Positions 4,288 to 25,971 of a DNA stretch of 64,000 bases are shown piece by piece. The notes below the pieces were generated by a model. The model saw only the letters and a program-made list of their open reading frames with translations. It had not been told where the DNA came from and did no database searches. Each line of letters starts with the position of its first letter. Position 1 is the first letter of the stretch. The DNA comes from a virus: IMG/VR virus record IMGVR_UViG_3300034105_002043, positions 1 to 64,000 of that record. One strand, 5' to 3'. The position numbers were made by a program, and so were the translations under genes.

Positions 4288-4848
4288 TTATTTTTTATTA
4301 TTCATATTAACAACAACTACGTCTGACCTTACCCAACGTAAAGACGGGTCTTTTGGCTTCATCATATCCCAACTGAAATTCTTTTTAATTTCAAATAGTT
4401 GATTTGAGTTTTCTTCATTTACTGCAAACCATATTTTTTTATCATCTCCTAATTTAGCAGTTACAATTTTACCTATAAATGACTTTTTTTTAGGTATTGT
4501 ACCCGCTATATTATTAAAAATACCATTATTAACTCCCGCACCCATTCTAACTTTTACATTATCAGTAGATGTATAAAATTTCTGACCTATATACTTTTCG
4601 TATTTTTTATTTTTTAATGCTTCGTCTATGCTTTTTTTGTATTCAGCAATCGAAATTTTAACTCCTTTACTTACTCCAACATTGACAGGGTTTCCACTTG
4701 CATTTTCGTAATCGAAATCAACGTTTTCATCATCAATAATTCCGACAGGTCTTGGTTTTTGTTTCTTTTTAGACAAAAAATAAACAGTTGCTAATCCTGC
4801 GACTACCAAACCACCTATTAATACTATTTTTTTTGTTCCTGATTCCAT
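4288..4848 (-). CDS. Membrane-anchored protein with bacterial SH3-like domain
   Basis: TM; DNVKVR...VNNG...IWF...WVRSDVV; carries YENASG motif. Confidence 0.65.
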   Translation of the reverse strand: MESGTKKIVLIGGLVVAGLATVYFLSKKKQKPRPVGIIDDENVDFDYENASGNPVNVGVSKGVKISIAEYKKSIDEALKNKKYEKYIGQKFYTSTDNVKVRMGAGVNNGIFNNIAGTIPKKKSFIGKIVTAKLGDDKKIWFAVNEENSNQLFEIKKNFSWDMMKPKDPSLRWVRSDVVVVNMNNKK

Positions 4849-4850
4849 TT

Positions 4851-5135
4851 TTATCCTTTAATAATTTCAACTTTTGGATTTCCGTCTTTATCTTTTACAT
4901 CTCTACCCCATTTTCTTAACCAAATGTCTTCTCCAAAGACGTGTAACTCATAGCCGTTAAATGTTGTAATATCAACGCCTTTATCAGTTGTAAACTCTTT
5001 CGTTGAACCTCCTAAAGAAGCCGTTCCTGTTCCATCTTTTCTAACTACAACTTTTGCCTTTGGCGGTATTAAAAAAAAGACTAATCCCGTTAAAGCAACA
5101 ACACCACCGATAATTAATACTTTTTTATTAGCCAT
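4851..5135 (-). CDS. Single-TM protein with small beta domain
   Basis: ORF track; N-terminal TM. Confidence 0.7.
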   Translation of the reverse strand: MANKKVLIIGGVVALTGLVFFLIPPKAKVVVRKDGTGTASLGGSTKEFTTDKGVDITTFNGYELHVFGEDIWLRKWGRDVKDKDGNPKVEIIKG

Positions 5136-5146
5136 AAGTCAATAAA

Positions 5147-5890
5147 TTACTCTTTGGTTAAAAGATAGCCCAATATAAAAGCAACGACTATCATTATTTT
5201 AGTATTATCTCCATTTCTTCTTTTTATTTCTGTTAAATTTTCAATAGCATTTGATTTATCATTACTATTAAAAACTTTAAATTCATTAAAAGAAAGAACA
5301 GGTTTACCACCTTGAAATCCTGAAGCATCATAAGGGTTAAATGTTCCTGAAACAATATAACCTTTCAATATTTCGCCTTTTGAAACGCTAACACAAGGAG
5401 GTCTTGCGACAGTTTGCATCATTTGAGATTGAGTTAATTGACCACAAAATCCACTTTGCTTATCAACCAAAGATTCAACTCTAATAATTTCTAATGGTTT
5501 TAGTTTTCCGTCTTTTAATGCCACGTCATATTGATTTTGCAAATCAACTTGGTATGTTTCAACAGGTAAAAATATTACGGTGTTTTTAGGTTGAGGAAGT
5601 TCTTGAACTCCTGATTGCCCCATTCTATTTTCCCATTTGTTCAAAATATTAAATTCTTGAACAACTAAATATGGTTTTTTTTCAACTAAAAAATTATTAG
5701 ACGAATCATATTGAGGCATAGCAATTTTTACATCACTTACCATAGGAGGTAAACTATTTCTATAATCAAGTAAACTTTGAGATAATTGATATTCTCTTGT
5801 TTGTTCAGCCAAAATTTTTTTTTGTTCAGCCAAACTAACTGCTTGTTCTAAATTTTGAGCATCTATACTAACTCCTGCAAAACTTCCCAT
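5147..5890 (-). CDS. C-terminally anchored membrane protein
   Basis: C-terminal IMIVVAFILGYLLTKE, similar to anchor of 6631..7722. Confidence 0.7.
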   Translation of the reverse strand: MGSFAGVSIDAQNLEQAVSLAEQKKILAEQTREYQLSQSLLDYRNSLPPMVSDVKIAMPQYDSSNNFLVEKKPYLVVQEFNILNKWENRMGQSGVQELPQPKNTVIFLPVETYQVDLQNQYDVALKDGKLKPLEIIRVESLVDKQSGFCGQLTQSQMMQTVARPPCVSVSKGEILKGYIVSGTFNPYDASGFQGGKPVLSFNEFKVFNSNDKSNAIENLTEIKRRNGDNTKIMIVVAFILGYLLTKE

Positions 5891-5892
5891 AA

Positions 5893-6618
5893 TTATTCAG
5901 TTTTATTTTTTTTAAATATTGCGTAACCAACTAAAATAGCAAGAACGCCAAACATCACATATTTTAAATTATCAGGTTTTTCAGCAGGTGGAACTATATT
6001 TTGAACCGTATAATCGGGTTTATTCATACCCTCTCCTGAACTACCATTAGCACTTAATAAGTCGTCTGTCGTATCGTAAGGCAAATTATTTAATGCAGTA
6101 TATAACTTTTTAGTTTCTTCGGCAGACATTGTATATCCTTTTCTGTAATGCTTCAAAACTCTTTTCAAAGTGCTTAAAGGATTTACAATAGTATTAATTA
6201 CCAATTTTCTATCCTTTAAGTCTTTAAGAGTATTATTACCATAATACAAGTCGTTACCGTCAGTAGCCAACATTGATATTGTAAAATCAAATCGGGCAAT
6301 AGTGTCCATTGGATTTTTAGCAAATATTTTTACTAAATCGTAAGTATTACCCTTGTAGGTAACTTTCATACCATTATCGCTTTCCCAAATAGTTTTTGCG
6401 CCTTTAGACTGCAAATATTTTTTTGCTTTATCGAATTCCGTTATGTTTGGGAAGAAAATATCGCAATCAGACTTTAAGGGTTTTTCCGTGAAATAATCTC
6501 TTAAAACACCTCCTGCAATCCAACAGTTAATTCCGTTCTTTTTTAATTCTTGTAGAATTAAATTATTGAAGTAAACAAGGGTCAAAGTTTTATTTACATT
6601 TATAGTTTTATTTGCCAT
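5893..6618 (-). CDS. Nucleotidyltransferase (CCA/poly(A) polymerase head-like) with C-terminal TM anchor
   Basis: WIAGGVLRD, SDCDIFF (DxD) and RFDFTISM motifs; C-terminal TM. Confidence 0.75.
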   Translation of the reverse strand: MANKTINVNKTLTLVYFNNLILQELKKNGINCWIAGGVLRDYFTEKPLKSDCDIFFPNITEFDKAKKYLQSKGAKTIWESDNGMKVTYKGNTYDLVKIFAKNPMDTIARFDFTISMLATDGNDLYYGNNTLKDLKDRKLVINTIVNPLSTLKRVLKHYRKGYTMSAEETKKLYTALNNLPYDTTDDLLSANGSSGEGMNKPDYTVQNIVPPAEKPDNLKYVMFGVLAILVGYAIFKKNKTE

Positions 6619-6630
6619 AATTTAGATTTA

Positions 6631-7722
6631 TTAAGTAGTTGGTGTATCTTTTCCGAATAAAACGTAGCCTAATAAAAAAGCCCCTACAATCATCAAAATA
6701 TTTTTGTTATTATCTTTAACAGGAACAACTACACCGCTATTAGTCGGAATATTTGTTGGATTTTTTTTTGTTAAGTATTCAACAGGAATTTCTAATTGAC
6801 CTGATTGTCCCATTCCACTAACAAGAAGAACATCGTAATATATCGAAGTTTCAGGCATACCATTAATAGATTTTCCTGTGATACTCTTTTGTCTAATTAA
6901 ATTACCCGTTACTTCCATTCCAATCGGAAGTGTTTCATAATTAGCAGTTTGTTCATATTGTAACCTACCTGCACCACCTAATTCATAAAGAGGTCTTACA
7001 TTTGTATATGATTTTATAAACTGAAAAGGCTTACTAATTGTATAAGTTACATTTGTTTCTAATACTTGACCTGATTGCGGTACAGAACGAATTGTAGGGT
7101 CAAAAGGAGGTATTATCTTTACAGGAGGCATATCATATACAGGTTGTGGCTTCATATTAGCACCGTATAAAATTCCTGTTGAAACAGTAACCGCTAAATT
7201 ATCATCAACTTTTCTTAAATAATCTTTAGGAATTGAAAATTCTTTTTGATTTTTTAAATCTCCTAAATTGCTAAAAAATCCAACTGATTTAGGGGTGTTT
7301 TGGTCAGGCACAACATAATTAGGATTTTGGATAATTGCATTGTTTCCGTCAAAACGAAGCACGTTCACTACATTTCCTTTTGAGAAAGTACCTACTTGTG
7401 GCTCTGAATTTACCTTTACAGGTTGCGGAAATAGTGCTTCCCACTTAATATTTTTTAAACCCCCTGTTCCATCGCCATCAAAATTATAAAATTCTTTAGT
7501 AGGTAAGGCAACTTCTTTTTTGATACCTGTATTTAATAATTGTGCTAAATTAATATTAGACCAAAAACCCTGTACTTTGTAATCATAAATAAATTCATAC
7601 TTCCCTAATTTCTCAAGAACACCAATTGGGTTTTCGTTAATTATTGAAACCGCCTTTATAGGTCTAATCATTGATATACTGCCTACTTCATTTTCTAAAA
7701 CTAAATCTTTATAATTTTGCAT
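6631..7722 (-). CDS. C-anchored protein with two SH3-like beta modules
   Basis: KYEFIYDY...FSKGNVV...FSIPKDYLRKVDD shared with 9528, 22334 and 22828; C-terminal TM. Confidence 0.6.
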   Translation of the reverse strand: MQNYKDLVLENEVGSISMIRPIKAVSIINENPIGVLEKLGKYEFIYDYKVQGFWSNINLAQLLNTGIKKEVALPTKEFYNFDGDGTGGLKNIKWEALFPQPVKVNSEPQVGTFSKGNVVNVLRFDGNNAIIQNPNYVVPDQNTPKSVGFFSNLGDLKNQKEFSIPKDYLRKVDDNLAVTVSTGILYGANMKPQPVYDMPPVKIIPPFDPTIRSVPQSGQVLETNVTYTISKPFQFIKSYTNVRPLYELGGAGRLQYEQTANYETLPIGMEVTGNLIRQKSITGKSINGMPETSIYYDVLLVSGMGQSGQLEIPVEYLTKKNPTNIPTNSGVVVPVKDNNKNILMIVGAFLLGYVLFGKDTPTT

Positions 7723-7733
7723 AACTTTATATT

Positions 7734-8519
7734 TTATCTGAATACTATATTATTTTTCTCAAAGTTGTCGATAAAGTTTTTAATCTTATCGTAACGTCTT
7801 TTATTTTCTTGACTTGGGTAATGTTCAAAAACCTCTAAAAAGGCTTCACAAGCCTCAATTCTTGGATAACCAAGTCCTAAATAAATCAATAATCCATTTA
7901 TGTCAGCCTCGCTTTCATCAGTCATATCTTCGTTAACGTAGAAATGACTAAATTCGTGGCAAAGAATCGCAAATCTCATAGGTATTGTGTATTCATCAAA
8001 CTGTTTCTTTGATACTTGAATACGACCCGTCATTCTTGATATTCTCGCAGGTGTTGTAAGTTCTTTTCCTTTTGAATCAACTATTGTTGGCAACAATTCA
8101 ATCATAAAACTTCCATTATCTGACTGATATGATTTATTTGCTTGTAAATAAGGCGCATTAAAACAAAATCTCTGCGCAAAATCAACAAAATGTGCTATTG
8201 TTGGGTTGTGAATGTCAACCACATCTATTCTTTTTTGTAAAGGTGTTTTGTCAACCGAAACAACTTTTACGTTTTTTTCTTGTTCTTGAGGGGTGTTCCC
8301 CTTTCTATCATCATAAACAGAAACTATTATGCTTTTAGAAGTAATTGGCATACGAACATAAAAAGTGTAATCAGAATTTACGGTCTTGTATCTGTTGGTA
8401 AAAACGATTTTTGGTTTTTGCTCGTCAAAAATTTTAATTCTGACTTTAGTAGGCATTGTAACTGCTACTTTTACCACCAAGCACATTTCTTCGTATCTTG
8501 TATCTAACCTTAAATTCAT
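7734..8519 (-). CDS. Zincin metalloprotease (HExxH), candidate virion maturation protease
   Basis: FAILCHEFSHFY...ESEAD; soluble gene embedded among structural genes. Confidence 0.7.
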   Translation of the reverse strand: MNLRLDTRYEEMCLVVKVAVTMPTKVRIKIFDEQKPKIVFTNRYKTVNSDYTFYVRMPITSKSIIVSVYDDRKGNTPQEQEKNVKVVSVDKTPLQKRIDVVDIHNPTIAHFVDFAQRFCFNAPYLQANKSYQSDNGSFMIELLPTIVDSKGKELTTPARISRMTGRIQVSKKQFDEYTIPMRFAILCHEFSHFYVNEDMTDESEADINGLLIYLGLGYPRIEACEAFLEVFEHYPSQENKRRYDKIKNFIDNFEKNNIVFR

Positions 8520-8520
8520 A

Positions 8521-8856
8521 CTACTTTCTTTTTTGGTAAATTTTATATCCTATTGCACCAATTATAATCAATCCTGATAACAACAAAACTGTTTTGTTCA
8601 AACCTAAAAAAGTATTATCCTTTTCCTTTTTATCATCAAGAGGTAAATCAATACCTAAATCAATTCTATTTTGCTTTTTTATTTGTTCAATCCAAGTCTT
8701 GTCATCAATTTCTCCATTTTCATCAGCAAAATTTTCAAACTTTTTATTAGTTAAAAACGCACCTTTGTCTTTTTCTCTTTGAATCCAATCGGCGAAACTT
8801 AACGAAGTCCCGCTTTCTCTCCAAATTTTATTTGGACTTTTCTGTTTACTTTCCAT
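8521..8856 (-). CDS. C-anchored membrane protein
   Basis: SFADWIQREK helix, FENFADENG motif, C-terminal TM. Confidence 0.75.
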   Translation of the reverse strand: MESKQKSPNKIWRESGTSLSFADWIQREKDKGAFLTNKKFENFADENGEIDDKTWIEQIKKQNRIDLGIDLPLDDKKEKDNTFLGLNKTVLLLSGLIIIGAIGYKIYQKRK

Positions 8857-8859
8857 AGT

Positions 8860-9018
8860 CTATTTTGTTGTTGTTGTTGTTGTTGTTGGAGAAGTTTTAC
8901 CGCTTTTTATTTCGTTATCAACTTCTAATCTTGGTTTTAAGAACCCCTTATATAGATAAACTAATAGTCCTACTGAAGCCCCTAACATAACGATTCCTAT
9001 AATTTTTTTAGTTTCCAT
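8860..9018 (-). CDS. 52-aa single-TM protein (not in ORF track)
   Basis: METKKIIGIVMLGASVGLLVYLYKGFLKPRLEVDNEIKSGKTSPTTTTTTTK fills the gap exactly. Confidence 0.8.
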   Translation of the reverse strand: METKKIIGIVMLGASVGLLVYLYKGFLKPRLEVDNEIKSGKTSPTTTTTTTK

Positions 9019-10113: not shown

Positions 10114-10239
10114 TTATCTGTAATAAGAACCGCTCATTCCGTAAAAACCTTGAGAATTCTTTTTTGGCTTATTGTAATAAGCAATAATTGCTAATACACC
10201 TACAATTGCTAAACCTCCGATGATATACTTCTTTTCCAT
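10114..10239 (-). CDS. 41-aa TM peptide, NSxGF family
   Basis: MEKKYIIGGLAIVGVLAIIAYYNKPKKNSQGFYGMSGSYYR. Confidence 0.8.
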   Translation of the reverse strand: MEKKYIIGGLAIVGVLAIIAYYNKPKKNSQGFYGMSGSYYR

Positions 10240-10273: not shown

Positions 10274-10399
10274 TTATTTATAATAAGAACCGCTCATTCC
10301 GTAAAAACCTTGAGAATTCTTTTTTGGCTTATTGTAATAAGCAATAATTGCTAATACACCTACTATTGCTAAACCTCCTATGATATACTTCTTTTCCAT
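10274..10399 (-). CDS. 41-aa TM peptide, NSxGF family
   Basis: MEKKYIIGGLAIVGVLAIIAYYNKPKKNSQGFYGMSGSYYK. Confidence 0.8.
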   Translation of the reverse strand: MEKKYIIGGLAIVGVLAIIAYYNKPKKNSQGFYGMSGSYYK

Positions 10400-10417: not shown

Positions 10418-10666
10418 TTAAACGTAACCAACTTCTTTATCACTACCATAAGTACAACTATCATAACCTGACGGTTGTAAATAATAACTTCCGTTAGGTC
10501 TTCTGCATTGTAATTGTTTTGCTGAACTTGAAATTCCTTTTGTTCTTCTTCCACTTGCGCCAAAGAATCCCTCTGAATTCTTTTTAGGCGTTGTTGGCTT
10601 TAAATAAGCAAATAATGCTATTGCACCTACTATGGCTAAACCTCCGATGATATACTTTTTTTCCAT
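10418..10666 (-). CDS. TM protein, NSxGF family, 2-Cys tail
   Basis: YIIGGLAIVG...PKKNSEGFFGASG plus variable tail. Confidence 0.8.
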   Translation of the reverse strand: MEKKYIIGGLAIVGAIALFAYLKPTTPKKNSEGFFGASGRRTKGISSSAKQLQCRRPNGSYYLQPSGYDSCTYGSDKEVGYV

Positions 10667-10675: not shown

Positions 10676-11047
10676 TTATTTATAGATAGTTTGTTTTGGC
10701 GGAGTTTTTTCACAAAAATTGTTTTTAGTAAAAGCAGATATAAATTCTTGCTCTGTTATACTAAATAACTCGCTAATTTGGTTAGATGGATTGTAAAGTT
10801 TTTTAAAATACATAAAGCCTCCTTTTGGAGATTGCATTTTATCATACTGAACACAAACTTTACAGAAAGGGTCTTTTCTTGAAAAAGAATTAGGCACAAA
10901 TAAACTTGTTTTAGGAGAATTAACCCCACTCATATTAAAGAATCCCTCTGAATTTCTTTTTGGTTTTCTAAAATACGAAATTAGTGCGATTACTCCAACA
11001 ACGGCTAATCCACCAATAATAAACTTTTTATCTTTTAAAATTTCCAT
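10676..11047 (-). CDS. TM protein, NSxGF family, Cys-containing tail
   Basis: FIIGGLAVVG...PKRNSEGFFNMSG plus variable tail. Confidence 0.8.
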   Translation of the reverse strand: MEILKDKKFIIGGLAVVGVIALISYFRKPKRNSEGFFNMSGVNSPKTSLFVPNSFSRKDPFCKVCVQYDKMQSPKGGFMYFKKLYNPSNQISELFSITEQEFISAFTKNNFCEKTPPKQTIYK

Positions 11048-12321: not shown

Positions 12322-12624
12322 TTAATTTCTTCTTGTAACTGCAAAAATTACTACTCCGAGTAATACAACTCCGCCGACACCTAAACCTATGTATAGGGCG
12401 GTATTGCTTTTTTCTTTTTCAGGAGTACCTTTACTCGCTTGTTTACTTAATAGAATGTTTTTCTCATTCTGTTTTGCAATTTCTAAATCTCGCAATTGTG
12501 CTTCTCGTGTAGCATTTGCTTGACCCTCTGCGTTTTTTACATTTTGATTATTTACAATCATTCCCGTTCCAAAAGTAATTACCGCAGGTAAAACACCTTT
12601 TATTACATCTCCCCAAGTTGCCAT
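12322..12624 (-). CDS. Membrane protein with coiled coil and C-terminal TM
   Basis: ORF track. Confidence 0.75.
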   Translation of the reverse strand: MATWGDVIKGVLPAVITFGTGMIVNNQNVKNAEGQANATREAQLRDLEIAKQNEKNILLSKQASKGTPEKEKSNTALYIGLGVGGVVLLGVVIFAVTRRN

Positions 12625-12634: not shown

Positions 12635-12862
12635 TTAAAAAGTTAATGTAGTCACTATTTGCTCTAACCAAGAAGTATATTCTTGAGTGAAAGTTGGGTT
12701 TTGATTTAAACCAATAAATACACCTTGTACCAATTGGTTTAGTGTGTAATCAGGTGCAGGTGCAAGTACGTTATTACGAACAAGCATTTCCGCTACATCG
12801 TTTGGGTACATTCCAACGGAACTACCAATCATATTTGATAACATTTGTTCATCTATAACCAT
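12635..12862 (-). CDS. Small helical protein, putative virion component
   Basis: YPNDVAEMLVRNNV resembles N-terminal helices of 12875 and 13534. Confidence 0.6.
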   Translation of the reverse strand: MVIDEQMLSNMIGSSVGMYPNDVAEMLVRNNVLAPAPDYTLNQLVQGVFIGLNQNPTFTQEYTSWLEQIVTTLTF

Positions 12863-12874: not shown

Positions 12875-13531
12875 TTATTCTTTTGGTCTTGCTACAAAAT
12901 AAATAATAGTACCTAATACTGCAACGCCTACTAAACTTAATACAACGATTGTAGTTGTACTCAACCCGTCTTTGGTTTTATCTTTTTCTATCTTTTCTTT
13001 TTCTTCAACCAATTCATCTTCGGTTAAAACAGGTAATCCTGCTTTTGCACGAGCATCAGCAATTGCTCTATTAGTTTGGTTTGTGTCGTAACTACCAAAA
13101 GCCTCTAATCCTTTACTAATTAAATCTCCTAATTTTAGGTCGCTAAAAAATCCACCTTTTTTTGGAGGTGTAGTTGTTGTTTCAGTATCATCATCTGTAC
13201 TCGTAACTCTAAAGTATTGAGCATTACCCTCTCTTTGACCTGCGAAATTACTTCCACTTGCTCTAAAATATTGAGCAGTTTGGGTTAATCCACCTGCAAG
13301 AGTTTGAGTTACTTTAGGATTTTGTATAAAGTTGTTTAAATCTTTAAAGAAAGATTTAGAAACTTTTAATAAGTTAGCCATTAAAGAGGCAATTTGTTGA
13401 GATGAAGCGTTGTTTGGAACAGTAACTCCATTTTTCAACAATAATGCAATCATTTGGCTTCTATAATTATTAACAAGCAATACTAAAGTCATTGCTCCTG
13501 TTTCAATCGTTGGTTGAATATTTTTTGCCAT
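12875..13531 (-). CDS. C-anchored virion membrane protein
   Basis: Duplicated AQYFR(ASG/VTS) motif; C-terminal TM; downstream of MCP candidate. Confidence 0.7.
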   Translation of the reverse strand: MAKNIQPTIETGAMTLVLLVNNYRSQMIALLLKNGVTVPNNASSQQIASLMANLLKVSKSFFKDLNNFIQNPKVTQTLAGGLTQTAQYFRASGSNFAGQREGNAQYFRVTSTDDDTETTTTPPKKGGFFSDLKLGDLISKGLEAFGSYDTNQTNRAIADARAKAGLPVLTEDELVEEKEKIEKDKTKDGLSTTTIVVLSLVGVAVLGTIIYFVARPKE

Positions 13532-13533: not shown

Positions 13534-13965
13534 TTATTTATTTTTTAAAATTAATGCAGTTGCTATAAACAAAGCGGAAACTACTAAAATAACATTCGTT
13601 TGGTTTGCCAATAAATGTGTATTCGTTGTAGAAGTGCTTGACTTTTCATCTGCAAATTTACCTGCTCCTGTAACATTTAGGTATTGTAAGTTATCCTCAA
13701 TACGTCTTCTATTTTTACAACTGTCGCAACCGCAACTTTTCTCTTCTTTGTCATCGGTTTTTTCAGTTGCGTATAATTCTAAAATAACATCTTTGTCGGG
13801 GTGGTTGTCCATAACTTTCTTAAAAGCAGGTTCTCCCACTTCGGCTACTAACTCACTCAAACTTTTACCTAAATCAGAGGTGTTTCGTACATCGTAACCA
13901 AAAGAATTGATTATTTGCACCGCACCATTCGGATTAGAATCTGCAACATATTTGAATACGTTCAT
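13534..13965 (-). CDS. C-anchored virion membrane protein with CxCxxC
   Basis: HPDKD...SCGCDSC, QYLNVTG motif, C-terminal TM; adjacent to MCP candidate. Confidence 0.7.
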   Translation of the reverse strand: MNVFKYVADSNPNGAVQIINSFGYDVRNTSDLGKSLSELVAEVGEPAFKKVMDNHPDKDVILELYATEKTDDKEEKSCGCDSCKNRRRIEDNLQYLNVTGAGKFADEKSSTSTTNTHLLANQTNVILVVSALFIATALILKNK

Positions 13966-14059: not shown

Positions 14060-14761
14060 TTACGCTCTTAACTTGATGGTTTGACCATTAGTTACAGGAG
14101 GCGTACCGAATTGTCTGCTTACAGGTTGTCCACCTAATGCTCTCGCAAGGTTGATGTTATCAGCAGGGTAGAAGTATAACGATACAGTAGCATTTGCTAA
14201 CACTTGAGCAATCGTGATTTTTGTGAAACCATCAATTCTGTAAGCATACTTCATCGCAATAATCGTAGTTTGTTGCTGATATGGGTCAATTGTAGGCACT
14301 AATGTTTTTTGTGCCAAGTTACCATTCGCATCTCTTGTGTTAACCGCCAATGTTTGTAACACTTGGTTAGCAGTAGCCGATTGAATGTAAGTTAAACCAA
14401 CAGAATATGGGTTGTTCATAAATTGATACAACATCTCTTGGTAGTTAATGTTAGGGATTCCTGAACTAATAGTTATAGAACCGATAACCAAATTTCCGTT
14501 TGTTTGGAAACCTGCGTTGTTGATGTATTGGTATGAACCTAATACGTCAAAATTAGAAACTGCTGACCCTGAAGTAGAAGTCACGTTAATAATATAAGGT
14601 TGAGATGTTTGAATATCTCCACCCATTGACATTCCACCATCTGCACGGAAGAAATCATCTCCTGTGAAAGAAAGGTCTTGGTCGATGAATCCATCTGCAT
14701 TTGAGAAAGACTCCATTGCACTTTGACGTGCATTACTTAAATATCTTCTTACGTTTGACAT
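14060..14761 (-). CDS. Major capsid protein candidate (single jelly-roll-like, with putative N-terminal propeptide)
   Basis: Soluble, beta-strand-rich, N/T/Q/S-rich, low Lys unlike neighbours; own promoter and terminator; near packaging ATPase. Fold is inferred. Confidence 0.6.
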   Translation of the reverse strand: MSNVRRYLSNARQSAMESFSNADGFIDQDLSFTGDDFFRADGGMSMGGDIQTSQPYIINVTSTSGSAVSNFDVLGSYQYINNAGFQTNGNLVIGSITISSGIPNINYQEMLYQFMNNPYSVGLTYIQSATANQVLQTLAVNTRDANGNLAQKTLVPTIDPYQQQTTIIAMKYAYRIDGFTKITIAQVLANATVSLYFYPADNINLARALGGQPVSRQFGTPPVTNGQTIKLRA

Positions 14762-17041: not shown

Positions 17042-17857
17042 TTATCCAACATATTGTTTCATCAATTGTTTTGTTTTGAACTTTAAAGCCTCTTGCAAAG
17101 TCATTGGCTTTGTTGAAGTCAGAGGGTTTTTTAAAGTCAAAGGTTTTAATAACTTATTTTGATTGGCTATTAAATAATCTTCAACAATTTTTTCAAATCG
17201 TTTCTTATCTTTTAATAAAACTTTTTCGTCATCAATATCCACATAGGTAAAAACCCTTTTATCGCCATCTTCGTATTGTGTGTTAATATACGCTTCTACT
17301 AATAATAACAATTCTAATTTTTCCTCAAACTTATTCCTGTGCTTAATTACGTCATCGGTAATTTTATGAAATCTAATCCAATTTAGATTCTGCCAAATTT
17401 TTGGCGAAATCCTACCTATTGACTGAAAGTGAAGAATAATGTCTGTGTCCGTGTGTCTGTTAGTACAGATTGCGCCAACAAGGTCATTCGGTAAGTAGTC
17501 ACTAACGTAACGGTTAATGTCTTCGATAAGTAATAGTCCACCTCTATAATCGTTTAATATTTTAAATAATACTTCTTGTATCTCTCTTAAAGTCATTCTA
17601 ACACCGTTATCGTGAAACGGTCTTATTCGTCTTGCTTCAATTTTAGGGTGCGCCGAAAATCTAACAATATCCGATTGTTTTAATGCTTTAATATCTTCAA
17701 ATTCGTCATTTACATCAAGAATTAAAGCACGTCTTGCAGGAACTCCTTTAGCGGGATTCCCTAACACATATTGCTTTATCATCTTGGTAGTAGTAAAGGT
17801 CTTTCCGCAACCTTTTCGCCCTACCGCAACTCCTAATTTTGGTTCTCTAATTTCCAT
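17042..17857 (-). CDS. Genome packaging ATPase, A32/P9-like (FtsK-HerA superfamily)
   Basis: Walker A GRKGCGKT near N-terminus, Walker B LLLIEDIN, NRH Arg-finger motif then IILHFQ; 271 aa with no nuclease domain. Confidence 0.8.
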   Translation of the reverse strand: MEIREPKLGVAVGRKGCGKTFTTTKMIKQYVLGNPAKGVPARRALILDVNDEFEDIKALKQSDIVRFSAHPKIEARRIRPFHDNGVRMTLREIQEVLFKILNDYRGGLLLIEDINRYVSDYLPNDLVGAICTNRHTDTDIILHFQSIGRISPKIWQNLNWIRFHKITDDVIKHRNKFEEKLELLLLVEAYINTQYEDGDKRVFTYVDIDDEKVLLKDKKRFEKIVEDYLIANQNKLLKPLTLKNPLTSTKPMTLQEALKFKTKQLMKQYVG

Positions 17858-17858: not shown

Positions 17859-17975
17859 TTATCTGTCCTTGTATAGTTTGTAAATAAAAAACATCAGCCA
17901 CATAACAAGTAACAACATAACAACCCAAAGAGGATTGTTATTATTGTTCTCATTACCTGTTACGTTACTTGCCAT
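17859..17975 (-). CDS. 38-aa single-TM peptide immediately upstream of ATPase (not in ORF track)
   Basis: MASNVTGNENNNNNPLWVVMLLLVMWLMFFIYKLYKDR; TAATG coupling to upstream gene. Confidence 0.7.
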   Translation of the reverse strand: MASNVTGNENNNNNPLWVVMLLLVMWLMFFIYKLYKDR

Positions 17976-19072
17976 TATTTTTTACCTCCTCTTGGTTTTT
18001 TAACTGCGGTTGTTCTTGCTTTTCTTACAGGTTTCTTTGGTTCATTACCGCTTAATCTTTCTAATTCAGAAAGGATTGCAGGGTCGCCGAATTGTGGCAT
18101 ACCTGCTACGTCCTTAAAGTCGTCTGTGAATCCACCGTTGTCTTTCAAGTTACTATAAACGCCTTGCTCTTCAGGCTCAAAATAAGCCAACTGTTCGTCT
18201 AAATTTGTTTTAGGCGCACTTCTTTCAGGTCTTCTTCTTTGTCTGCTTACAGGCTCTTGAATAACTTCCGCTATATTTTCTGTATATGAAACATCGTTAT
18301 CAACAGGCTCTTGATATACAGGCTCTTGATATTGTGTTTGAGGTTGAGGTTCAGGTCTTGGCGGTTCAGGTCTTGAATTTCTCATATTATTTTCTCTCAT
18401 AGCCATAGTATTCTCTTTTAAAGAGTCCAAAATGCTATTAGTAGTTTTCTTTAACATAAATGCTTGTGCGCCCTTTGTAGCAATATCAGTACCAAAGTAG
18501 TACATCAATAATTGCTCATCGGTCATTCCAATACCACGTTTTTTGAATACACGAATTAAAGGTGCTTTTACTTTGTCTTTGAATTCGTCACTTACAACAA
18601 ACGCTTCTTTAATGCTATCATTAAATTCAACGGCAAAATCTTTAATTGGCATATTTCCTGCTTCAGTTTGAAGCGTAATATTCGGGTCAATTTCGCCCTC
18701 TGCAATTAACTTGTCAATTTTTGTTTCGCTTATTTCAGGAATTTTACCTAAATAGAAACAACCTTTTTCGTAGATGTCTAAAGTCATTTCAGCCATCATC
18801 TCCGCACCCATAGTTTTCTCTTTACCGTCTAATTGAGAATAACTTTCGTTGAATGGTCTTTCAGGCTCATTTGCTTCTTCTTCGGCAGTACCGTCAAGGT
18901 CTGCGAAACTTGGACGTTCAAAAGTAGGTTCTTCCAATTCTCCCATTTCTTGAGCATCGCCCATTTTGTGTTGTGTGTACGACCTTTGTTTTACAGGTGC
19001 GTCTAAAGGCGAGAAATCATCATTAATAATTTCTACATCTTGAATGTCTTCGTAGTTTTCTTGGTTAATCAT
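17975..19072 (-). CDS. Acidic protein with Pro/Gln-rich region and basic tail, possible packaging or scaffold partner
   Basis: ORF track; position next to ATPase. Confidence 0.6.
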   Translation of the reverse strand: MINQENYEDIQDVEIINDDFSPLDAPVKQRSYTQHKMGDAQEMGELEEPTFERPSFADLDGTAEEEANEPERPFNESYSQLDGKEKTMGAEMMAEMTLDIYEKGCFYLGKIPEISETKIDKLIAEGEIDPNITLQTEAGNMPIKDFAVEFNDSIKEAFVVSDEFKDKVKAPLIRVFKKRGIGMTDEQLLMYYFGTDIATKGAQAFMLKKTTNSILDSLKENTMAMRENNMRNSRPEPPRPEPQPQTQYQEPVYQEPVDNDVSYTENIAEVIQEPVSRQRRRPERSAPKTNLDEQLAYFEPEEQGVYSNLKDNGGFTDDFKDVAGMPQFGDPAILSELERLSGNEPKKPVRKARTTAVKKPRGGKK

Positions 19073-19923: not shown

Positions 19924-20568
19924 TTAAATTCCGTATTTCTTTGTAAATTCAGGGTGTTTTAAAATTGCTTTTCCTAACTCTCTACCCCCATCGTTATCGC
20001 TTGGGTAATGGTGTCCTAAATAAACTCGGCTATACGATATATCTTCAATCAATTCCTTACAATATTGATACTCTGTCGGGTATTTATTTCCTAATACATT
20101 TAATATTACAATTGCTTGAACCGTATGTCCTGATGGATAAGAGGGTGTGTGAGCAGAAAAACTTTTATACGGAAAAAGTTTTAATTTATAATATTGCGCT
20201 ATTTGAAAAGGTCTTGGTCGTTGAATATGAAATTTTAGTTTAAAAATTAAGTTCTGAATATCTTTTACAATTTCCGTAACCAACTCTTCTACTTCAATAT
20301 CTTTTTGTTTAAATATGCTTGATATTGCTTGAATTAAATTTCTATCATACGCTAAATACCTCTTTAGATAATTTTGATTTTCAGGTTGTGACATTACTGC
20401 TAAACTATCTGCAACTTCGTTAAGTTCGTCCTTAACTAATTCAGAATCGTTATTAGGCACTACTGCGTCTTTAAAAGTATCAAAAAGGTCATCTACCAAA
20501 CAACTCCCTTGAATGAAACCTAATTGTTCGTGTGTTGGATTACCGTATGTTAAATCATTAAACTCCAT
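19924..20568 (-). CDS. PAP2/haloperoxidase-superfamily phosphatase
   Basis: K....RPRP, SYPSGH, SRVYLGHHYPSD catalytic motifs. Confidence 0.85.
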   Translation of the reverse strand: MEFNDLTYGNPTHEQLGFIQGSCLVDDLFDTFKDAVVPNNDSELVKDELNEVADSLAVMSQPENQNYLKRYLAYDRNLIQAISSIFKQKDIEVEELVTEIVKDIQNLIFKLKFHIQRPRPFQIAQYYKLKLFPYKSFSAHTPSYPSGHTVQAIVILNVLGNKYPTEYQYCKELIEDISYSRVYLGHHYPSDNDGGRELGKAILKHPEFTKKYGI

Positions 20569-21339: not shown

Positions 21340-21555
21340 TTAATTGTTTTTGTTTTTTAAATAATTTTTTCCATTATAATAAAAAGTAGAAACCCCAATA
21401 ATAATCAAACTTAATTGTATAAATTTTGGTAATGTTTTACCTTTTAATCCTGCATAAACACAAATTGGAGCAATAACAAAAATGTCAATAATTCTAATTG
21501 CTTGGCTCTTTTGAAATTCTTCTACTGTTTCTGTTCTAATTTCGTTTATTTTCAT
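21340..21555 (-). CDS. Two-TM small protein
   Basis: KSQAIRIIDIFVIAP...IIIGVSTFYYNGKNY. Confidence 0.7.
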   Translation of the reverse strand: MKINEIRTETVEEFQKSQAIRIIDIFVIAPICVYAGLKGKTLPKFIQLSLIIIGVSTFYYNGKNYLKNKNN

Positions 21556-21575
21556 ATTTTTAAAAGTTTTTACTT

Positions 21576-21758
21576 TTATTTTTTAAAAAATTTCAAAACT
21601 CTTTGAACGTTTTTTCGGTCATAAGGCACTTTGCCGTTTAACCAATCTTGTCTTGCTTCGCAACCGCAATCTTCTGTTACTGCTTCAACTACCGCTTTAA
21701 TTCCTGTAAATTTAGTAATTTTTGCAACAGTATCGCCTAATCCTCTGCTTTTTTCCAT
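21576..21758 (-). CDS. Conserved small phage protein (GLGDT...CGC motif)
   Basis: SRGLGDTVAKITKFTGIK...DCGCEARQDWLN. Confidence 0.75.
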   Translation of the reverse strand: MEKSRGLGDTVAKITKFTGIKAVVEAVTEDCGCEARQDWLNGKVPYDRKNVQRVLKFFKK

Positions 21759-21785
21759 ACCAAATTGTTGTTATTTTACTTGGTT

Positions 21786-21989
21786 TTATTTTGTGTAATC
21801 TTTATTGATTAAATCATACGTCATATAAGCAACCGTACCTGCGCCTAATACAACGCCTATTGCCATACTTCCTAATACAGTTACCAAAGCCCCTTTACCT
21901 AAACTATATCCTTTAGAATAAGAGAAAATAGCAAGACTTAAAGGCACAACCAATAAAACTACTGCTCCATTATTTGAATCCTTTGCCAT
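21786..21989 (-). CDS. Two-TM small protein
   Basis: ORF track. Confidence 0.7.
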   Translation of the reverse strand: MAKDSNNGAVVLLVVPLSLAIFSYSKGYSLGKGALVTVLGSMAIGVVLGAGTVAYMTYDLINKDYTK

Positions 21990-22000
21990 ATACTTAATTA

Positions 22001-22327
22001 TTAAGTCGTTGAGTATTTTTTACCCATTGCTTTTTTAACATTGTATTTTACTTCTTCTACGTCATCTACCAAATTAAGGAAATCATCGTTTGGTTTTTTC
22101 TCTTCGTTCAATTTAGCAATTGCTTTTCTGTAATATGTAATTCCATATATTGAAAATGCAATCAAAAGCCCGAATACAAGCAAACTTTTAAAATCCATTG
22201 GTTTTTGCGACCCCATACTTTCAAATACATCATCGCCACCACCTGACGGTGCAACGGGTGCGGGTGCTACGGGTGCTACTGCTACGGGAGCGGGTGCTAC
22301 GGGTGCTACTGCTACTTCTGTTTCCAT
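22001..22327 (-). CDS. TM protein with (VAP)n N-terminus
   Basis: Ala/Pro/Val repeat, central TM. Confidence 0.75.
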   Translation of the reverse strand: METEVAVAPVAPAPVAVAPVAPAPVAPSGGGDDVFESMGSQKPMDFKSLLVFGLLIAFSIYGITYYRKAIAKLNEEKKPNDDFLNLVDDVEEVKYNVKKAMGKKYSTT

Positions 22328-22333
22328 AATAAT

Positions 22334-22822
22334 TTATTTATTAAATTTTTTATATGCTAAATATGCAATTACCAATCCTCCTAAAATTAGTAAATTAGTT
22401 TTGTTTTTTTCTAAAAATGTTTGAGGAGCGACATCTTTATTATCAGGATAATCTGCCCCTAATCCCTGTTGTTCAGAATTTATAACTTTCACACTTTTAT
22501 CTAATGTAACTTTAGAATCATCAGGAACTAATTCTAATTCTTTTTGGAAATAAGAGTTGTTTTTAACATCTCTAATGTTACTCAAAAATATAGGATATTT
22601 GTCAGTATCTTTTTTTAAAGAAATTTGAAAACTATTAGGAAAATCTTCATTTTCTCCACCATTAAATTTTAATGGCTCTGCCTCCACAATAGTACCTTTA
22701 GGTATTGTATAAAGAAGTTTGTCTTTAATTTCTTTAGTTCCATCTCCGCCTGTTAATTCAGGTGCAGGAACAGTTTTATAACTATACTGACTTGCTTCAA
22801 TTAATAATTTATACTTTGCCAT
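22334..22822 (-). CDS. C-anchored protein with SH3-like module
   Basis: Shares QTFLEKNKTNLLI...YLAYKKFNK anchor with 22828. Confidence 0.75.
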   Translation of the reverse strand: MAKYKLLIEASQYSYKTVPAPELTGGDGTKEIKDKLLYTIPKGTIVEAEPLKFNGGENEDFPNSFQISLKKDTDKYPIFLSNIRDVKNNSYFQKELELVPDDSKVTLDKSVKVINSEQQGLGADYPDNKDVAPQTFLEKNKTNLLILGGLVIAYLAYKKFNK

Positions 22823-22827
22823 AATTT

Positions 22828-23187
22828 CTATTTATTAAATTTTTTATATGCTAAATATCCTAAAACCAATAAGCCAACTATTAGTAAATTGGTTTTATTT
22901 TTTTCTAAAAATGTTTGTTCTCTTACTAACATTTCAGGAACTTGAAATACCCCATTATAATAAACTAATTTATTATCTTCTGTAAAATTATTCGGAGTAA
23001 TTATTTCAACATTATATGCTCTTGCTTCGGGATTTACACCTGCATTTGTAGGCACTAATTTACCCTCAAAAACATCTCCTTTTTTAAATTTGTGTTTTAA
23101 TTTTATTGAGCGAACATCGTGACGGCTTTCGTCACTTGGTGTTGTGCCAATTGCCTCAAAATCTTCTTTAAATATATATTTTGCCAT
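22828..23187 (-). CDS. C-anchored protein with SH3-like module
   Basis: KYIFKEDF...FKKGDVFEG...FQVP. Confidence 0.75.
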   Translation of the reverse strand: MAKYIFKEDFEAIGTTPSDESRHDVRSIKLKHKFKKGDVFEGKLVPTNAGVNPEARAYNVEIITPNNFTEDNKLVYYNGVFQVPEMLVREQTFLEKNKTNLLIVGLLVLGYLAYKKFNK

Positions 23188-23192
23188 AATTC

Positions 23193-23621
23193 CTATTTTT
23201 TATTTTTAAATGCTCTAACAATTAAAAATAGTCCTGCTAACATTCCTATTCCTGCATAAATAATTTTATGGTCTTGTAAATGCTGAACAAATTTATTTTT
23301 ACTTGACTCTACTGCAACGGGTCTATTATCTTTAGGTTTTTTTCCTGAATTAATAACAACTTCGTCAAGAACAATATTATCGTCTAATAATTTTATTTTT
23401 TTACCTTGAAGTTCTTTAGCCTTAAAAAATTGAGGCTTGTACCCAACGTATGATATTTTAAATTCTGAATCAGGTGTAATTGAATTATCTTCTATAACAA
23501 AATTTCCGTCCAAGTCTGCTTCGTCTGCCATTTTATTGGCAAATTCTCCTGATACAATAGTGACATTTGCTAAACCCATAGGCAACCCGTCAATATCTAA
23601 AACTTGTCCAAATATCTTCAT
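23193..23621 (-). CDS. CarboxypepD_reg-like (SusC N-terminal type) domain protein with C-terminal TM
   Basis: GQVLD.DG.P...ANVTI...DLDGNF.I...ISYVGY...LDEVVI. Confidence 0.8.
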   Translation of the reverse strand: MKIFGQVLDIDGLPMGLANVTIVSGEFANKMADEADLDGNFVIEDNSITPDSEFKISYVGYKPQFFKAKELQGKKIKLLDDNIVLDEVVINSGKKPKDNRPVAVESSKNKFVQHLQDHKIIYAGIGMLAGLFLIVRAFKNKK

Positions 23622-23806
23622 TATGCTTTTCCTCCTGTTATTCTTTTAATCGTGTAATAATTAACTATTGCGCCTAATGTAAAAGACACAATGCCTACTA
23701 CAACAAATATTGTAGATAAATGCTGATGTGTTTTAGCACTTGCATCTTTCTTATTTTGCTCATCAGTTTGTGCGCCTGTTTGACTACTTTGAACTGCTCC
23801 TACCAT
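23621..23806 (-). CDS. Single-TM protein
   Basis: ORF track. Confidence 0.7.
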   Translation of the reverse strand: MVGAVQSSQTGAQTDEQNKKDASAKTHQHLSTIFVVVGIVSFTLGAIVNYYTIKRITGGKA

Positions 23807-24407
23807 AATAATAATATAATGAAATTCCTGCTATTATTGACAATATCCCTAATGCAATATAATTTTTGTATGCTTTTACTGCTAAACCAAAACTTCCGTC
23901 ATTTAACCATTCTTTAGGTAGTTTCTCTAACATTGTTTTTTTAACTTCCCAAACTCTTAATTTTCCATCTTTTACTTGGCGGAAAGCAGGGTTTGCATTG
24001 TATATTTTTTCTGCACTTAAACCACCTCCCTGAATAATCCAATCATCGGGCTTACCAATTGCAGGTGGGAAAAATACCGCAAAATAAGTGTCAATATATG
24101 TTTTATATTTTCCTTTGTAAAGGTTAAAATATTTCTCTACAAAATCTAACTGCTTAACTGCCGACATTTTTTGTAATTCCTCTTTAGTTGTTCCTAAAGT
24201 TTTTCTTGCACTTGCACCAAACTGAATTAAACCAACGTACCCCAAAGAGTTTGTAATAGACGGACTAAATGTACCTGCCGTTTCAAAGTGCATAATAGCC
24301 ATTAACCAATTAGGGTCAACGCCTATTCTTTTCGATACTTCTTTTACCTTTTCTACAAAAGGTGTCCTGATTGAAGCAGGTACTTTATTTTCGTATATTA
24401 ATGCCAT
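23784..24407 (-). CDS. Lytic transglycosylase (lysozyme-like) with C-terminal TM, putative virion entry enzyme
   Basis: WLMAIMHFET catalytic Glu, GYVGLIQF, QLDFVEKYF. Confidence 0.8.
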   Translation of the reverse strand: MALIYENKVPASIRTPFVEKVKEVSKRIGVDPNWLMAIMHFETAGTFSPSITNSLGYVGLIQFGASARKTLGTTKEELQKMSAVKQLDFVEKYFNLYKGKYKTYIDTYFAVFFPPAIGKPDDWIIQGGGLSAEKIYNANPAFRQVKDGKLRVWEVKKTMLEKLPKEWLNDGSFGLAVKAYKNYIALGILSIIAGISLYYYYGRSSSK

Positions 24408-24701
24408 TTACCACAATATTTTATCCGCATACCAACCATTTGTTCCCGTTTTTTTACGGTCTTTTTCGTGACGAATCTTATATAATCTTCTTCTTTCCTT
24501 TGCATATCCTTTCGGATAATAGCCTTTTTTTTCTTTTTCCAAATAGGTAGGGTAATCATTCATACCCAAAGCCCCTATTGAAGCGACTTTTTTACCGTTT
24601 TTAAAAACATCAATTTTTTTAAGCGGGTTAGTTGAGGGTTTTATTTCAACTCTCAACTTATCTGCTTGTGCTTTTGAATATGGTAAAATCTTGTAAGCCA
24701 T
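24408..24701 (-). CDS. Basic protein resembling DUF5754
   Basis: PST...KK.DV...IG..G..DY....RR..Y..RH....G.....ILW pattern, recalled not searched. Confidence 0.6.
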   Translation of the reverse strand: MAYKILPYSKAQADKLRVEIKPSTNPLKKIDVFKNGKKVASIGALGMNDYPTYLEKEKKGYYPKGYAKERRRLYKIRHEKDRKKTGTNGWYADKILW

Positions 24702-24718
24702 TAATTAAATATTTTTAA

Positions 24719-24940
24719 TTAATTACCTACCGTACTTGCTATTGCTCTATACCCCTCTTTACAATCCCTTGTATCAGACATATAAATTTGACCTCTTTCA
24801 TTTCTGCAATAATACTTTTTTTTATCCTTTCCCATCGCATTAAAAAATCCGTCTGAATTTCTCTTTGGTTTTTGTACATAAGCAACAATTGCAATCACAC
24901 CAAGTAAGGCTAAACCTCCAAATATATATTCTGTTTTCAT
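24719..24940 (-). CDS. TM protein, NSxGF family, 2-Cys tail
   Basis: YIFGGLALLG...PKRNSDGFFNAMG. Confidence 0.8.
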   Translation of the reverse strand: MKTEYIFGGLALLGVIAIVAYVQKPKRNSDGFFNAMGKDKKKYYCRNERGQIYMSDTRDCKEGYRAIASTVGN

Positions 24941-24956
24941 ATTTTTTATTTATTTA

Positions 24957-25634
24957 TTAATTATTTTCATCAAACACATAAGTTTGTTTTGTTTCGTCAT
25001 ACCTAATTTTCTTTAACTCTTCTTCGGTAAAATTTCTTCTGAAAAAACCTACTATGGTCATACTTCCGCTTTTTTTACCTACCGTAAGGTATCTTTTTAA
25101 TTTTTTTACCTTATCTCCCTCGCCTGTTTTTGTTGAGTCTGTATTCCCCTCAATAGTTTCGCAATAATTTGTTTTTTCGTCTAAAATTTGTACAATTATT
25201 CCTGTATGTCCTCCTTGTGTTCTTTTAGCACAAAAAATATCTCCTACTTGTAATTTTCCACTTTTAAAAGCAATATACTTTTTATCTCCTTTTTTATTTA
25301 AGTTTTGTACATTAATTAAATTTTGTAATGCACTTCCACCTATATTTTTTGACAACCACTCTTTATCAAAAGAAAATAGTTGCATCAATACTAATTTAAC
25401 ATAATAAGCACACCACGCTTGACTTGACTTCCAACCAACTGCTTTCATCATTGCTTCAAAAGCACTATCAACAAATCCTACATTCGCTCTTCCTTTGACT
25501 TTTTTTTCTAATTGAGATGCAAAGCCTGTATTTTCCAAAAAACCTAATAGTTTAGCAAATACGAGAGGTATATTTGGAAATAAATTGGCGGTGCTATTTC
25601 CACCATTAGGATTGTTTTCATTTTCTTCTCCCAT
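24957..25634 (-). CDS. CHAP-domain peptidoglycan hydrolase
   Basis: AWCAYYV, GDIF, GHTGII, TIEGNT. Confidence 0.85.
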   Translation of the reverse strand: MGEENENNPNGGNSTANLFPNIPLVFAKLLGFLENTGFASQLEKKVKGRANVGFVDSAFEAMMKAVGWKSSQAWCAYYVKLVLMQLFSFDKEWLSKNIGGSALQNLINVQNLNKKGDKKYIAFKSGKLQVGDIFCAKRTQGGHTGIIVQILDEKTNYCETIEGNTDSTKTGEGDKVKKLKRYLTVGKKSGSMTIVGFFRRNFTEEELKKIRYDETKQTYVFDENN

Positions 25635-25639
25635 AACTT

Positions 25640-25822
25640 TTACTTTATATTTGGGTCATTAAAAACATCATAATCCTCAACTATTTCCTTAACATCATTT
25701 TTGTAAATTATCGAAATCTTTTTTTCATTGGCTTTTCTCGTAAGATACATAGTCAAAGCAAAACCGCCAACACCAACTGCTACTAAACCCGTAATTAATA
25801 ATATTTTTTTACCGTTAGTCAT
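25640..25822 (-). CDS. Single-TM protein (paralogue of 26699..26863)
   Basis: KIL...VG.GGF.L..YLTR. Confidence 0.75.
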   Translation of the reverse strand: MTNGKKILLITGLVAVGVGGFALTMYLTRKANEKKISIIYKNDVKEIVEDYDVFNDPNIK

Positions 25823-25836
25823 ATTTTGTAAATAAT

Positions 25837-25971
25837 TTATTTAGCCCCACAACCACAACCACCTGTTGCGCTGAAAAAACCCTCTGAATTTTTCTTTGGT
25901 TTATTGTAATAAGCAATTAATGCTATTACCCCTACAATTGCTAAACCCCCTATGATGTATTGCTTATTCAT
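25837..25971 (-). CDS. 44-aa TM peptide, NSxGF family (not in ORF track)
   Basis: MNKQYIIGGLAIVGVIALIAYYNKPKKNSEGFFSATGGCGCGAK. Confidence 0.8.
   Translation of the reverse strand: MNKQYIIGGLAIVGVIALIAYYNKPKKNSEGFFSATGGCGCGAK

Follow-up and report, generated by a model that had tools for sequence, protein, structure and literature searches.

We analysed a stretch of 64,000 nucleotides of viral DNA, hereafter the window, which is the first 64 kb of an IMG/VR record (IMGVR_UViG_3300034105_002043; 76,746 bp, complete according to CheckV). The window encodes a recurrent hexapeptide, aromatic - x - Asn/Ser/Gly - Ala (or Met/Phe/Val) - x - Gly, constrained at positions 1, 4 and 6, which is found in the N-terminal arm of the coat-protein candidate and in a few families of membrane proteins between positions 4288 and 25971. 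This hexapeptide qualifies as a short linear motif that is real and kept by selection: it has six residues of which few are fixed, sits in disordered or variable segments, is conserved as an island and recurs in unrelated proteins. The virus is a member of a lineage, undescribed so far, of large, tailless, aquatic, membrane-containing viruses that have genomes of 77-100 kb and are very abundant; the literature searched contains no description of the group or of the motif. As for its function, we see an even prospect that the hexapeptide is the recognition site of a virion maturation protease, possibly acting after a docking step, and the best candidate for this enzyme is an HExxH protein encoded at 7734-8519.

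The hexapeptides listed by an earlier, sequence-only reading of this DNA were all found where it had placed them, in minus-strand open reading frames (ORFs). Those outside one paralogous family, treated further below, are the following, given with the coat-protein candidate:

14060-14761, minus strand: coat-protein candidate, 233 residues, jelly roll (AlphaFold2 model, fold matches, family size)
14690-14707, minus strand: FSNADG, first motif of the coat arm, residues 19-24
14636-14653, minus strand: FFRADG, second motif of the coat arm, residues 37-42, followed by a variable-length linker and then TSQPYII
13666-13683, minus strand: YLNVTG, residues 95-100 of the C-terminally anchored protein 13534-13965
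13253-13270, minus strand: YFRASG, residues 88-93 of the C-terminally anchored protein 12875-13531, with one to three copies in homologues
4693-4710, minus strand: YENASG, residues 47-52 of the N-terminally anchored protein 4288-4848
6043-6060, minus strand: LLSANG, residues 187-192 of the nucleotidyltransferase-like, C-terminally anchored protein 5893-6618
8722-8739, minus strand: FENFAD, a degenerate copy, residues 40-45 of the C-terminally anchored protein 8521-8856
7474-7491, minus strand: FYNFDG, residues 78-83 of the protein 6631-7722

Because the pattern had been set post hoc and six of its copies are paralogous, we used three independent tests. In the region 4288-25971, and counting paralogues once, the aromatic-first form of the pattern was found 7 times versus 1.8 expected by composition. 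A position-specific scoring matrix (PSSM), trained on 87 coat homologues (both arm blocks) after exclusion of the window and its five closest relatives, gave 12 matches at a score of at least 10 in the window's non-coat proteins versus 2.3 in within-protein shuffles, and 12 matches were reached in none of 300 shuffles. Among these, FYNADG in an aminotransferase (62969-63637) and WHGAEG (58872-59240) are probably the approximately two matches expected by chance. The enrichment implied by the sequence-only reading is thus borne out by both the pattern and the PSSM. An unbiased scan of gapped residue pairs over 93 coat arms put A-x-G at the top (157 versus 59.5, z 14.8), followed by F/W/Y-x4-G, F/W-x2-A and N-x2-G, so that the motif emerges by itself from a scan that did not presuppose it.

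The distribution of the motif among families is bimodal and limited to a few of them. When the ORFs of the related loci were clustered, the PSSM-positive share was 94% for the coat family, 90% for 13534, 83% for 5893, 62% for the NSxGF family described below, 53% for 4288 and 33% for 12875, versus 0-9% in about 30 further families, which include most membrane proteins, and 0-5% in the shuffle background. It is therefore extremely improbable that the hexapeptide reflects nothing else than chance, i.e., the composition of low-complexity linkers plus one paralogous family. The post hoc pattern, the six paralogous copies, the unconserved FYNFDG of 6631-7722 and the two chance-like PSSM matches in enzymes would fit such an origin, which is rejected by the independent PSSM, the shuffles, the bimodal families and a positional conservation of 44/44 in the family of 13534-13965. 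An EF-hand-like calcium loop and signals of the signal-peptidase or sortase type were ruled out by register and position.

The two copies of the coat-protein candidate are located in a segment without predicted structure. The AlphaFold2 (AF2) model, built with a 93-sequence alignment, has an N-terminal helix (residues 3-17), a disordered arm (residues 17-45) and a beta domain (residues 56-203); its predicted local distance difference test score (pLDDT) was 85 overall, above 95 in the beta domain and below 50 for residues 17-45. It supersedes an earlier model from 12 close sequences (pLDDT 54). Fold searches with the new model retrieved jelly rolls exclusively (Z 5-6.7), with matches to the penton P31 of PRD1/PR772, phiCjT23, FLiP, PM2 and picorna-like capsid proteins. 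A wide fold search (VIA) gave generic jelly-roll matches alone (Z<=6.7), and Foldseek versus the PDB gave nothing at E<=0.001. As modeled, the fold is a jelly roll of the eight-stranded type; middling Z values such as these fit a penton as well as a major coat protein. We consider 14060-14761 a candidate major coat protein on account of its conservation, its family size and a nearby gene for a packaging-type ATPase. It is the most conserved protein of the region (60-100% identity, versus 30-60% for neighboring genes), and its family comprises 1984 clusters at 90% identity and 727 representatives at 50% identity. No match was found by tblastn in phage GenBank or in Pfam, and PHROGs gave at most a weak major-head match.

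Homologues for the study of conservation were taken from 35 related viral contigs and 16 more distant ones, and the conservation of the arm could be followed over considerable distances. In the 93 homologues the columns of the first motif are [F45 Y26] x [N42 S29 G13] [A48 F20] [D57 N11] G78 and those of the second [F21 Y18 W13] x [N34 Y14] A86 [D37 N12] G70. The consensus order of the arm is a helix (KYFxxAxxxANE), [FY]-x-[NSG]-[AF]-[DN]-G, a variable, acidic linker, [FYW]-x-[NY]-A-[DN]-G, a second variable linker and TSQPYII. Most of 100 full-length representatives (<=50% mutual identity) have one or two copies of the motif in the N-terminal arm, with the pattern of the sequence-only reading present 0.77 times per arm versus 0.044 in shuffled arms, and the arms lacking it mostly contain near-variants such as LGADG, FYADG or MLNASG. 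The motif is retained in coat proteins from many environments that are just 30-45% identical to that of the window.

Several coat lineages (L079, at 605-1267, P0180, P0185 and P0191) have a basic amphipathic N-terminus in place of the acidic motif arm. In L079, polyvalent-type giant proteins are encoded directly after the coat gene, and YAKGG-type sites are still present there. The coat gene of L052 (10001-10738) has a GTG start, and calling genes from ATG only cuts its product to just before TSQPYIV, creating a false arm-less protein. P0126 was discarded as an arm-less coat protein, since known contigs match its residues 33-179 only and it is probably chimeric or mis-called.

Among the membrane proteins the clearest case is 13534-13965, in which the motif was found at the aligned site in 44 of 44 unique homologues; the motif columns have 0% gaps and the 15 flanking columns on either side 60-65%. 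The copies in this family drift between the NASG type and the GADG/NADG type, which indicates that the membrane-protein and coat versions are one and the same motif. In 12875-13531 YFRASG is followed by a weaker second copy, YFRVTS, and homologues can have tandem triplets (YFKMSG..YFRMSG..YFKMSG in L003, FSNADG three times in L055). This gene clusters by sequence with 12322-12624 and 12635-12862, all three having in common a helical N-domain, and it is the only one of the trio with the motif and a long linker. The family of 4288-4848 has [FY]-[EN]-[NS]-A-x-G within a variable linker in 8 of 12 homologues. The degenerate FENFAD of 8521-8856 is replaced at the same place in distant homologues by FNNADG, YNNADG, FLNFSG or LLNVTG, and 13 of 39 have a strict motif no more than 15 columns away from the aligned position. 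For 5893-6618, which has a PHROG nucleotidyltransferase match, the conservation of LLSANG is weakly informative because it was seen in just six close homologues. FYNFDG of 6631-7722 is kept in only 2 of 7 homologues and was left uncounted for this reason; it is probably not a functional copy. Pfam gave nothing for the products of 13534, 12875, 4288 or 6631.

The remaining copies belong to a family of small proteins that we call NSxGF, with six genes in the window:

10114-10239, 10274-10399, 10418-10666 and 10676-11047, minus strand: four NSxGF genes
24719-24940, minus strand: NSxGF member with FFNAMG
25837-25971, minus strand: NSxGF member with FFSATG and a seven-residue tail, GCGCGAK

The first four have the same layout, an N-terminal transmembrane (TM) helix, KPK[KR]NS[EQD]GF[FY][GNS][AM]xG and a variable tail. 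Three of the six genes (10114-10239, 10274-10399 and 25837-25971) are ORFs of 41-44 residues that are missed at a 50-residue cut-off. Over all loci we found 29 unique members with unrelated tails of 4-111 residues, mostly mini-domains with two to four Cys. The tails often contain C-x2-C ... C-x5-6-C (10418-10666; L005:14247-14489; L001:14544-14801) and are reminiscent of miniature zinc ribbons or knottins, carried as payloads by a shared leader. The tandem 41-residue genes 10114-10239 and 10274-10399 differ by a single residue (C-terminal SYYR versus SYYK), which suggests that a minimal protein made of a TM helix plus the motif was duplicated recently.

Taken over the families, the island of conservation that the sequence-only reading had anticipated in homologous genomes is there (44/44 for 13534, 8/12 for 4288, most coat arms), and so is the setting that it had described, variable linkers adjoining membrane anchors, common to the coat arm and to a defined set of single-pass membrane proteins. 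Its figure of at least 11 membrane proteins overstates the number of independent cases: the copies are present, but six of them are paralogues and that of 6631 is not conserved.

Some of the membrane-protein copies (N-A-S, N-V-T, N-M-S) look like the N-glycosylation sequon N-x-S/T, and the genome encodes glycosylation enzymes (GT2, GT4, RgpF-like and aminosugar enzymes), so that a modification site for the virus's own glycosyltransferase cluster could be envisaged. We consider this very improbable. Conserved copies often exchange Asn for R/G/S/K and Ser/Thr for D/N/G/M/A, coat arms favor N-A-D-G (D in 57 of 93), and in the 13534 family 8 of the first 31 homologues have no S/T while retaining A/V and G. 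Besides, the constrained positions 1, 4 and 6 are those that a sequon leaves free, and the residue at -2 to the Asn is aromatic here and acidic in the bacterial PglB sequon (D/E-x-N-x-S/T), whose pattern is not followed.

A related signal was found in the cargo operon, which encodes giant polyvalent proteins (ART-PolyVal, DUF2958, DUF5661) and a zeta-toxin-like kinase. The features involved are:

28119-40433, minus strand: two giant polyvalent cargo proteins of 1731 and 2368 residues, with a DUF2958 match
53396-55705, minus strand: ART-PolyVal polyvalent protein (Pfam ART-PolyVal, E 1e-33)
54017-54364, minus strand: Cys-His module, alternative protease candidate, between YAKGG and YEKGG

With the further Pfam matches to DUF2958 (E 2e-12) and DUF5661 (E 4e-9), these are polyvalent proteins in the accepted sense. 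[YFLM]-A-[DKN]-G-G is repeated every 60-250 residues along the two giants, with 17 and 19 sites respectively, and in the whole window [FYWLM]A.GG was found 42 times versus 1.3 expected, exclusively in proteins of the cargo operon. There are five tandem pairs of A-x-G-G sites of the type YADGGFMNDVYADGG in the cargo proteins. The linker DGGFMN[DN]VYA[DK]GG appears five times across both giant genes, so that paired A-x-G-G sites are always 10 residues apart. Tandem sites about 10 residues apart are found alike in the cargo proteins and in the 12875 family.

The GG sites coincide with module borders. In the ART-PolyVal protein the module start LLAPNGKPSNL is found after the initial MSNK and again after FEKGG, and stand-alone homologues of the Cys-His module, of 120-126 residues, end right where the ..EKGG linker begins in the fused form. 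As cleavage sites would, the GG sites thus fall at the borders of modules and the hexapeptides between anchor and domain. The same gene, 53396-55705, contains two ART-PolyVal modules in tandem, of which the second opens with the N-terminal segment LLAPNGKPSNLNATQYELVRTPAFKKWFGDWENDPAN right after FEKGG. Its product and that of 55710-56657 (zeta-toxin-like) both end in GG-x6-PDYL[KR]MFL, and a stand-alone Cys-His protein from another metagenome (P0272) has a similar end, ...YGNGG...DYLKFLWF; a C-terminal tag after the last GG therefore recurs across viruses.

The sequence-only reading had taken the hexapeptide for a signal of maturation cleavage or capsid docking that differs from PhixxGG, the signal represented here by the A-x-G-G linkers of the cargo proteins. 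The first part holds insofar as a selected motif is common to the coat arm and the membrane proteins, but the separation of the two signals is only partial. On the one hand, they occupy separate gene blocks, strict A-x-G-G being confined to the cargo/polyvalent operon and N-A-x-G to the coat and membrane block, and the second Gly is hardly ever missing from the cargo sites but can be absent from the others. On the other, at the position of the second motif of the coat arm [FY]-A-[DN]-G replaces aromatic-x-N-A-x-G in 20 of 86 lineages, and the coat-trained PSSM also picks up cargo linkers (FLFADG|GFMNDV, NNYADG|G, YGYANG|G). As arms and PSSM cover both, the hexapeptide and PhixxGG share an A-x-G core, preceded by an aromatic residue at position -1 or -3 relative to the Ala. 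Judging from these sequences, they are probably two dialects read by one reader.

Since the motif is conserved across very distant relatives, a single viral factor probably reads it. A processing site is what one would expect from GG sites at module borders, from a common NSxGF leader with unrelated tails and from small residues at i/i+2. Small residues just before the scissile bond are typical of viral maturation proteases such as adenain, pS273R of African swine fever virus (ASFV), poxvirus I7 and alphavirus nsP2. Under this proposal the reader would need small residues at P3 (Ala) and P1 (Gly) with an aromatic residue upstream. The cut would clip the N-terminal helix and the acidic arm from the jelly-roll coat protein and would detach domains, or short Cys-rich tails, from the parts that anchor them in the membrane; with the [YF]-A-x-G-G dialect it would divide the giant polyvalent cargo proteins into modules. 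The protease nature of the reader, the choice of enzyme, the position of the scissile bond and the use of one reader for both dialects are our inferences. The leading candidate is:

7734-8519, minus strand: HExxH protein of 261 residues, encoded by a core gene, best candidate reader or protease

Its invariant residues are H188, E189, H192, E202, E204 and D206. In two sets of related loci, 29 of 35 and 14 of 16 have the gene, and in breadth its family equals that of the coat protein (1828 versus 1984 clusters). It has no match in Pfam or by PDB profile search, and SprT-like proteins appear at E 0.19 only; the protein Atlas provides for this putative zincin leads only (DUF4344 0.84, M48 0.82). 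The alternative, the Cys-His module at 54017-54364, has C6, H32, E34, H47 and D52 as invariants and no Pfam or PDB profile match. Its stand-alone relatives form 13 clusters, a number that does not imply rarity since embedded forms were outside the search. Among the proteins scanned, which did not include all small ORFs, Pfam detected no cysteine protease of clan CE.

Reading by a host factor (a protease, a chaperone or a membrane-insertion factor) has a precedent in the staphylococcal phage 80alpha, in which the host protease Prp cuts both capsid and scaffold proteins, and would be compatible with a motif tolerant at several positions and with two viral candidates that were not placed in a protease family. 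Nonetheless, it appears improbable, given that the motif is kept in coat proteins 30-45% identical to that of the window, in many environments and presumably many hosts, and that a conserved viral HExxH gene co-occurs with it.

A number of observations weigh against a protease site. Neither the HExxH protein nor the Cys-His module falls in a protease family recognizable by Pfam or PDB profiles. Two of the NSxGF proteins, of 41 residues, would shed just a tail of four (SYYK/SYYR), which would be pointless for cargo release. Coat arms with three or four closely spaced acidic-aromatic copies resemble multivalent binding motifs, and the strong conservation of the arm, helix included, is compatible with a retained structural role. 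Finally, the GG and N-A-x-G forms are in separate gene blocks, so that there may be two readers.

These points lead to an alternative that is to be taken seriously, although we hold it less probable, namely docking between capsid and membrane without cleavage. Here the motif would bind a pocket on the inner side of the coat lattice, a scaffold or an assembly factor and would tether to the shell both the internal membrane, by the juxtamembrane copies, and neighboring coat subunits, by the copies in the arm, with docking followed by cutting as a sub-case. The minimal 41-residue proteins, hardly more than a TM helix and the motif, would suit this role, and so would a flexible arm followed by a variable-length linker, which is like a tethered ligand. 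Variable copy number and tandems in acidic aromatic-rich arms are typical of avidity-driven motifs, and the exchange of the acidic arm for a basic amphipathic N-terminus in L079, P0180 and P0185 suggests that the arm contacts the membrane. Yet docking hardly explains why the same core marks the limits of globular enzyme modules within the cargo proteins, and AF2 puts no segment of the arm on the jelly roll (pLDDT <50). Tandem copies as such do not discriminate between cleavage and docking because the cargo linkers have them too. A more speculative, rather unlikely combination of docking with the protease proposal would be a dock-and-cut code, in which the peptide would, via one pocket, tether coat subunits to one another, membrane proteins to the coat lattice and cargo modules to the particle, and the zincin would then cut adjacent to it, parting the shell from the membrane and setting the cargo free.

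The genes around these proteins are consistent in orientation, all on the minus strand, and have a GC content of approximately 0.32. No tailed-phage head, portal, terminase or tail genes were found in the window. It encodes dozens of single-pass membrane proteins, several peptidoglycan hydrolases and the ATPase mentioned above:

17042-17857, minus strand: P-loop packaging-type ATPase, 271 residues

A PAP2-family lipid phosphatase (19924-20568) is kept in nearly all related loci, and a GDSL lipase (27455-28114) has an N-terminal TM helix; both enzymes may remodel the viral or host membrane. Gene 17975-19072 encodes an acidic, Pro/Gln-rich core protein of 365 residues with a basic C-terminal tail, which could be a scaffold or DNA-binding protein. 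FADLDG and YSQLDG in this protein, with Leu at position 4, were rejected as copies of the motif since they are not conserved in homologues.

The sites of T4, adenovirus, poxviruses and ASFV are the closest known systems, none of them being equal in consensus. In phage T4 the gp21 sites ((L/I)-x-E; gp23, gp24, scaffold, IPI-III and Alt) are, as here, one motif in the coat N-terminus and in many virion proteins, and in both cases a packaged ADP-ribosyltransferase is among the carriers. Cleavage by gp21 takes off the coat N-terminus and targeting peptides, an event that here is a proposal. P1 is acidic in T4 whereas Gly is proposed for it here, and T4 is a tailed virus of HK97 fold without an internal membrane, unlike this one; no gp21-like (assemblin-fold) protease was detected. 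The sites of the adenovirus protease AVP, (M/I/L)-x-G-G|x and (M/I/L)-x-G-x|G, are similar in having a hydrophobic residue upstream of small, Gly-containing positions and in being distributed over many virion precursors (pVI, pVII, pVIII, pIIIa, pTP) of a virus with a jelly-roll capsid. The N-terminal peptides of pVI and pVII bind the hexon cavity, a similar dock-and-cut logic. The register differs, with Ala here at P3/P4 and the aromatic residue one or three positions before it, so that the adenain consensus is not matched, and the adenovirus hexon is unprocessed whereas here the coat protein itself bears the motif.

Poxvirus I7 cuts at A-G|x, likewise an Ala/Gly site, and clips A17 near its anchor, releasing the D13 jelly-roll scaffold. 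ASFV pS273R cuts the polyproteins pp220 and pp62 at G-G|x, as we propose for the cargo giants. These are eukaryotic viruses with clan CE proteases, and the site here is A-x-G rather than A-G and predicted from sequence. The multi-module giants with ART-PolyVal, DUF2958 and DUF5661 correspond to the polyvalent proteins of Iyer et al. (2017; PMC5512222), for which processing by embedded peptidases and autoproteolytic release of modules was predicted; that article contains neither "linker" nor "glycine", and its passages on processing name no site motif. Compared with the embedded peptidases treated in those passages, the candidate zincin, of 261 residues, is encoded by a separate core gene, and a related motif is also present in coat and membrane proteins. 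The double-glycine leaders of bacteriocins, cut by C39 peptidases, are like NSxGF in combining a leader that ends in small residues with a variable, often Cys-rich payload. Unlike them, the NSxGF leader is a TM helix plus a basic stretch and has no LSxxELxxIxGG consensus, and no C39 domain was detected in the proteins scanned.

In the better-known tailless membrane-containing phages (PRD1, PM2 and the sphaerolipoviruses) we know of no maturation protease and no shared processing or docking code. In the lineage studied here a single peptide code would join the coat, a defined set of membrane proteins and, as a variant, giant toxin-bearing cargo proteins. Such a code is a concrete, testable handle on particle assembly and maturation and on the processing of polyvalent proteins, and it offers a simple sequence criterion by which virion proteins of this lineage can be annotated. 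If dock-and-cut were true, it would give bacterial viruses of the tailless, membrane-containing kind their first described maturation pathway, and this in a lineage several times the size of any known one.

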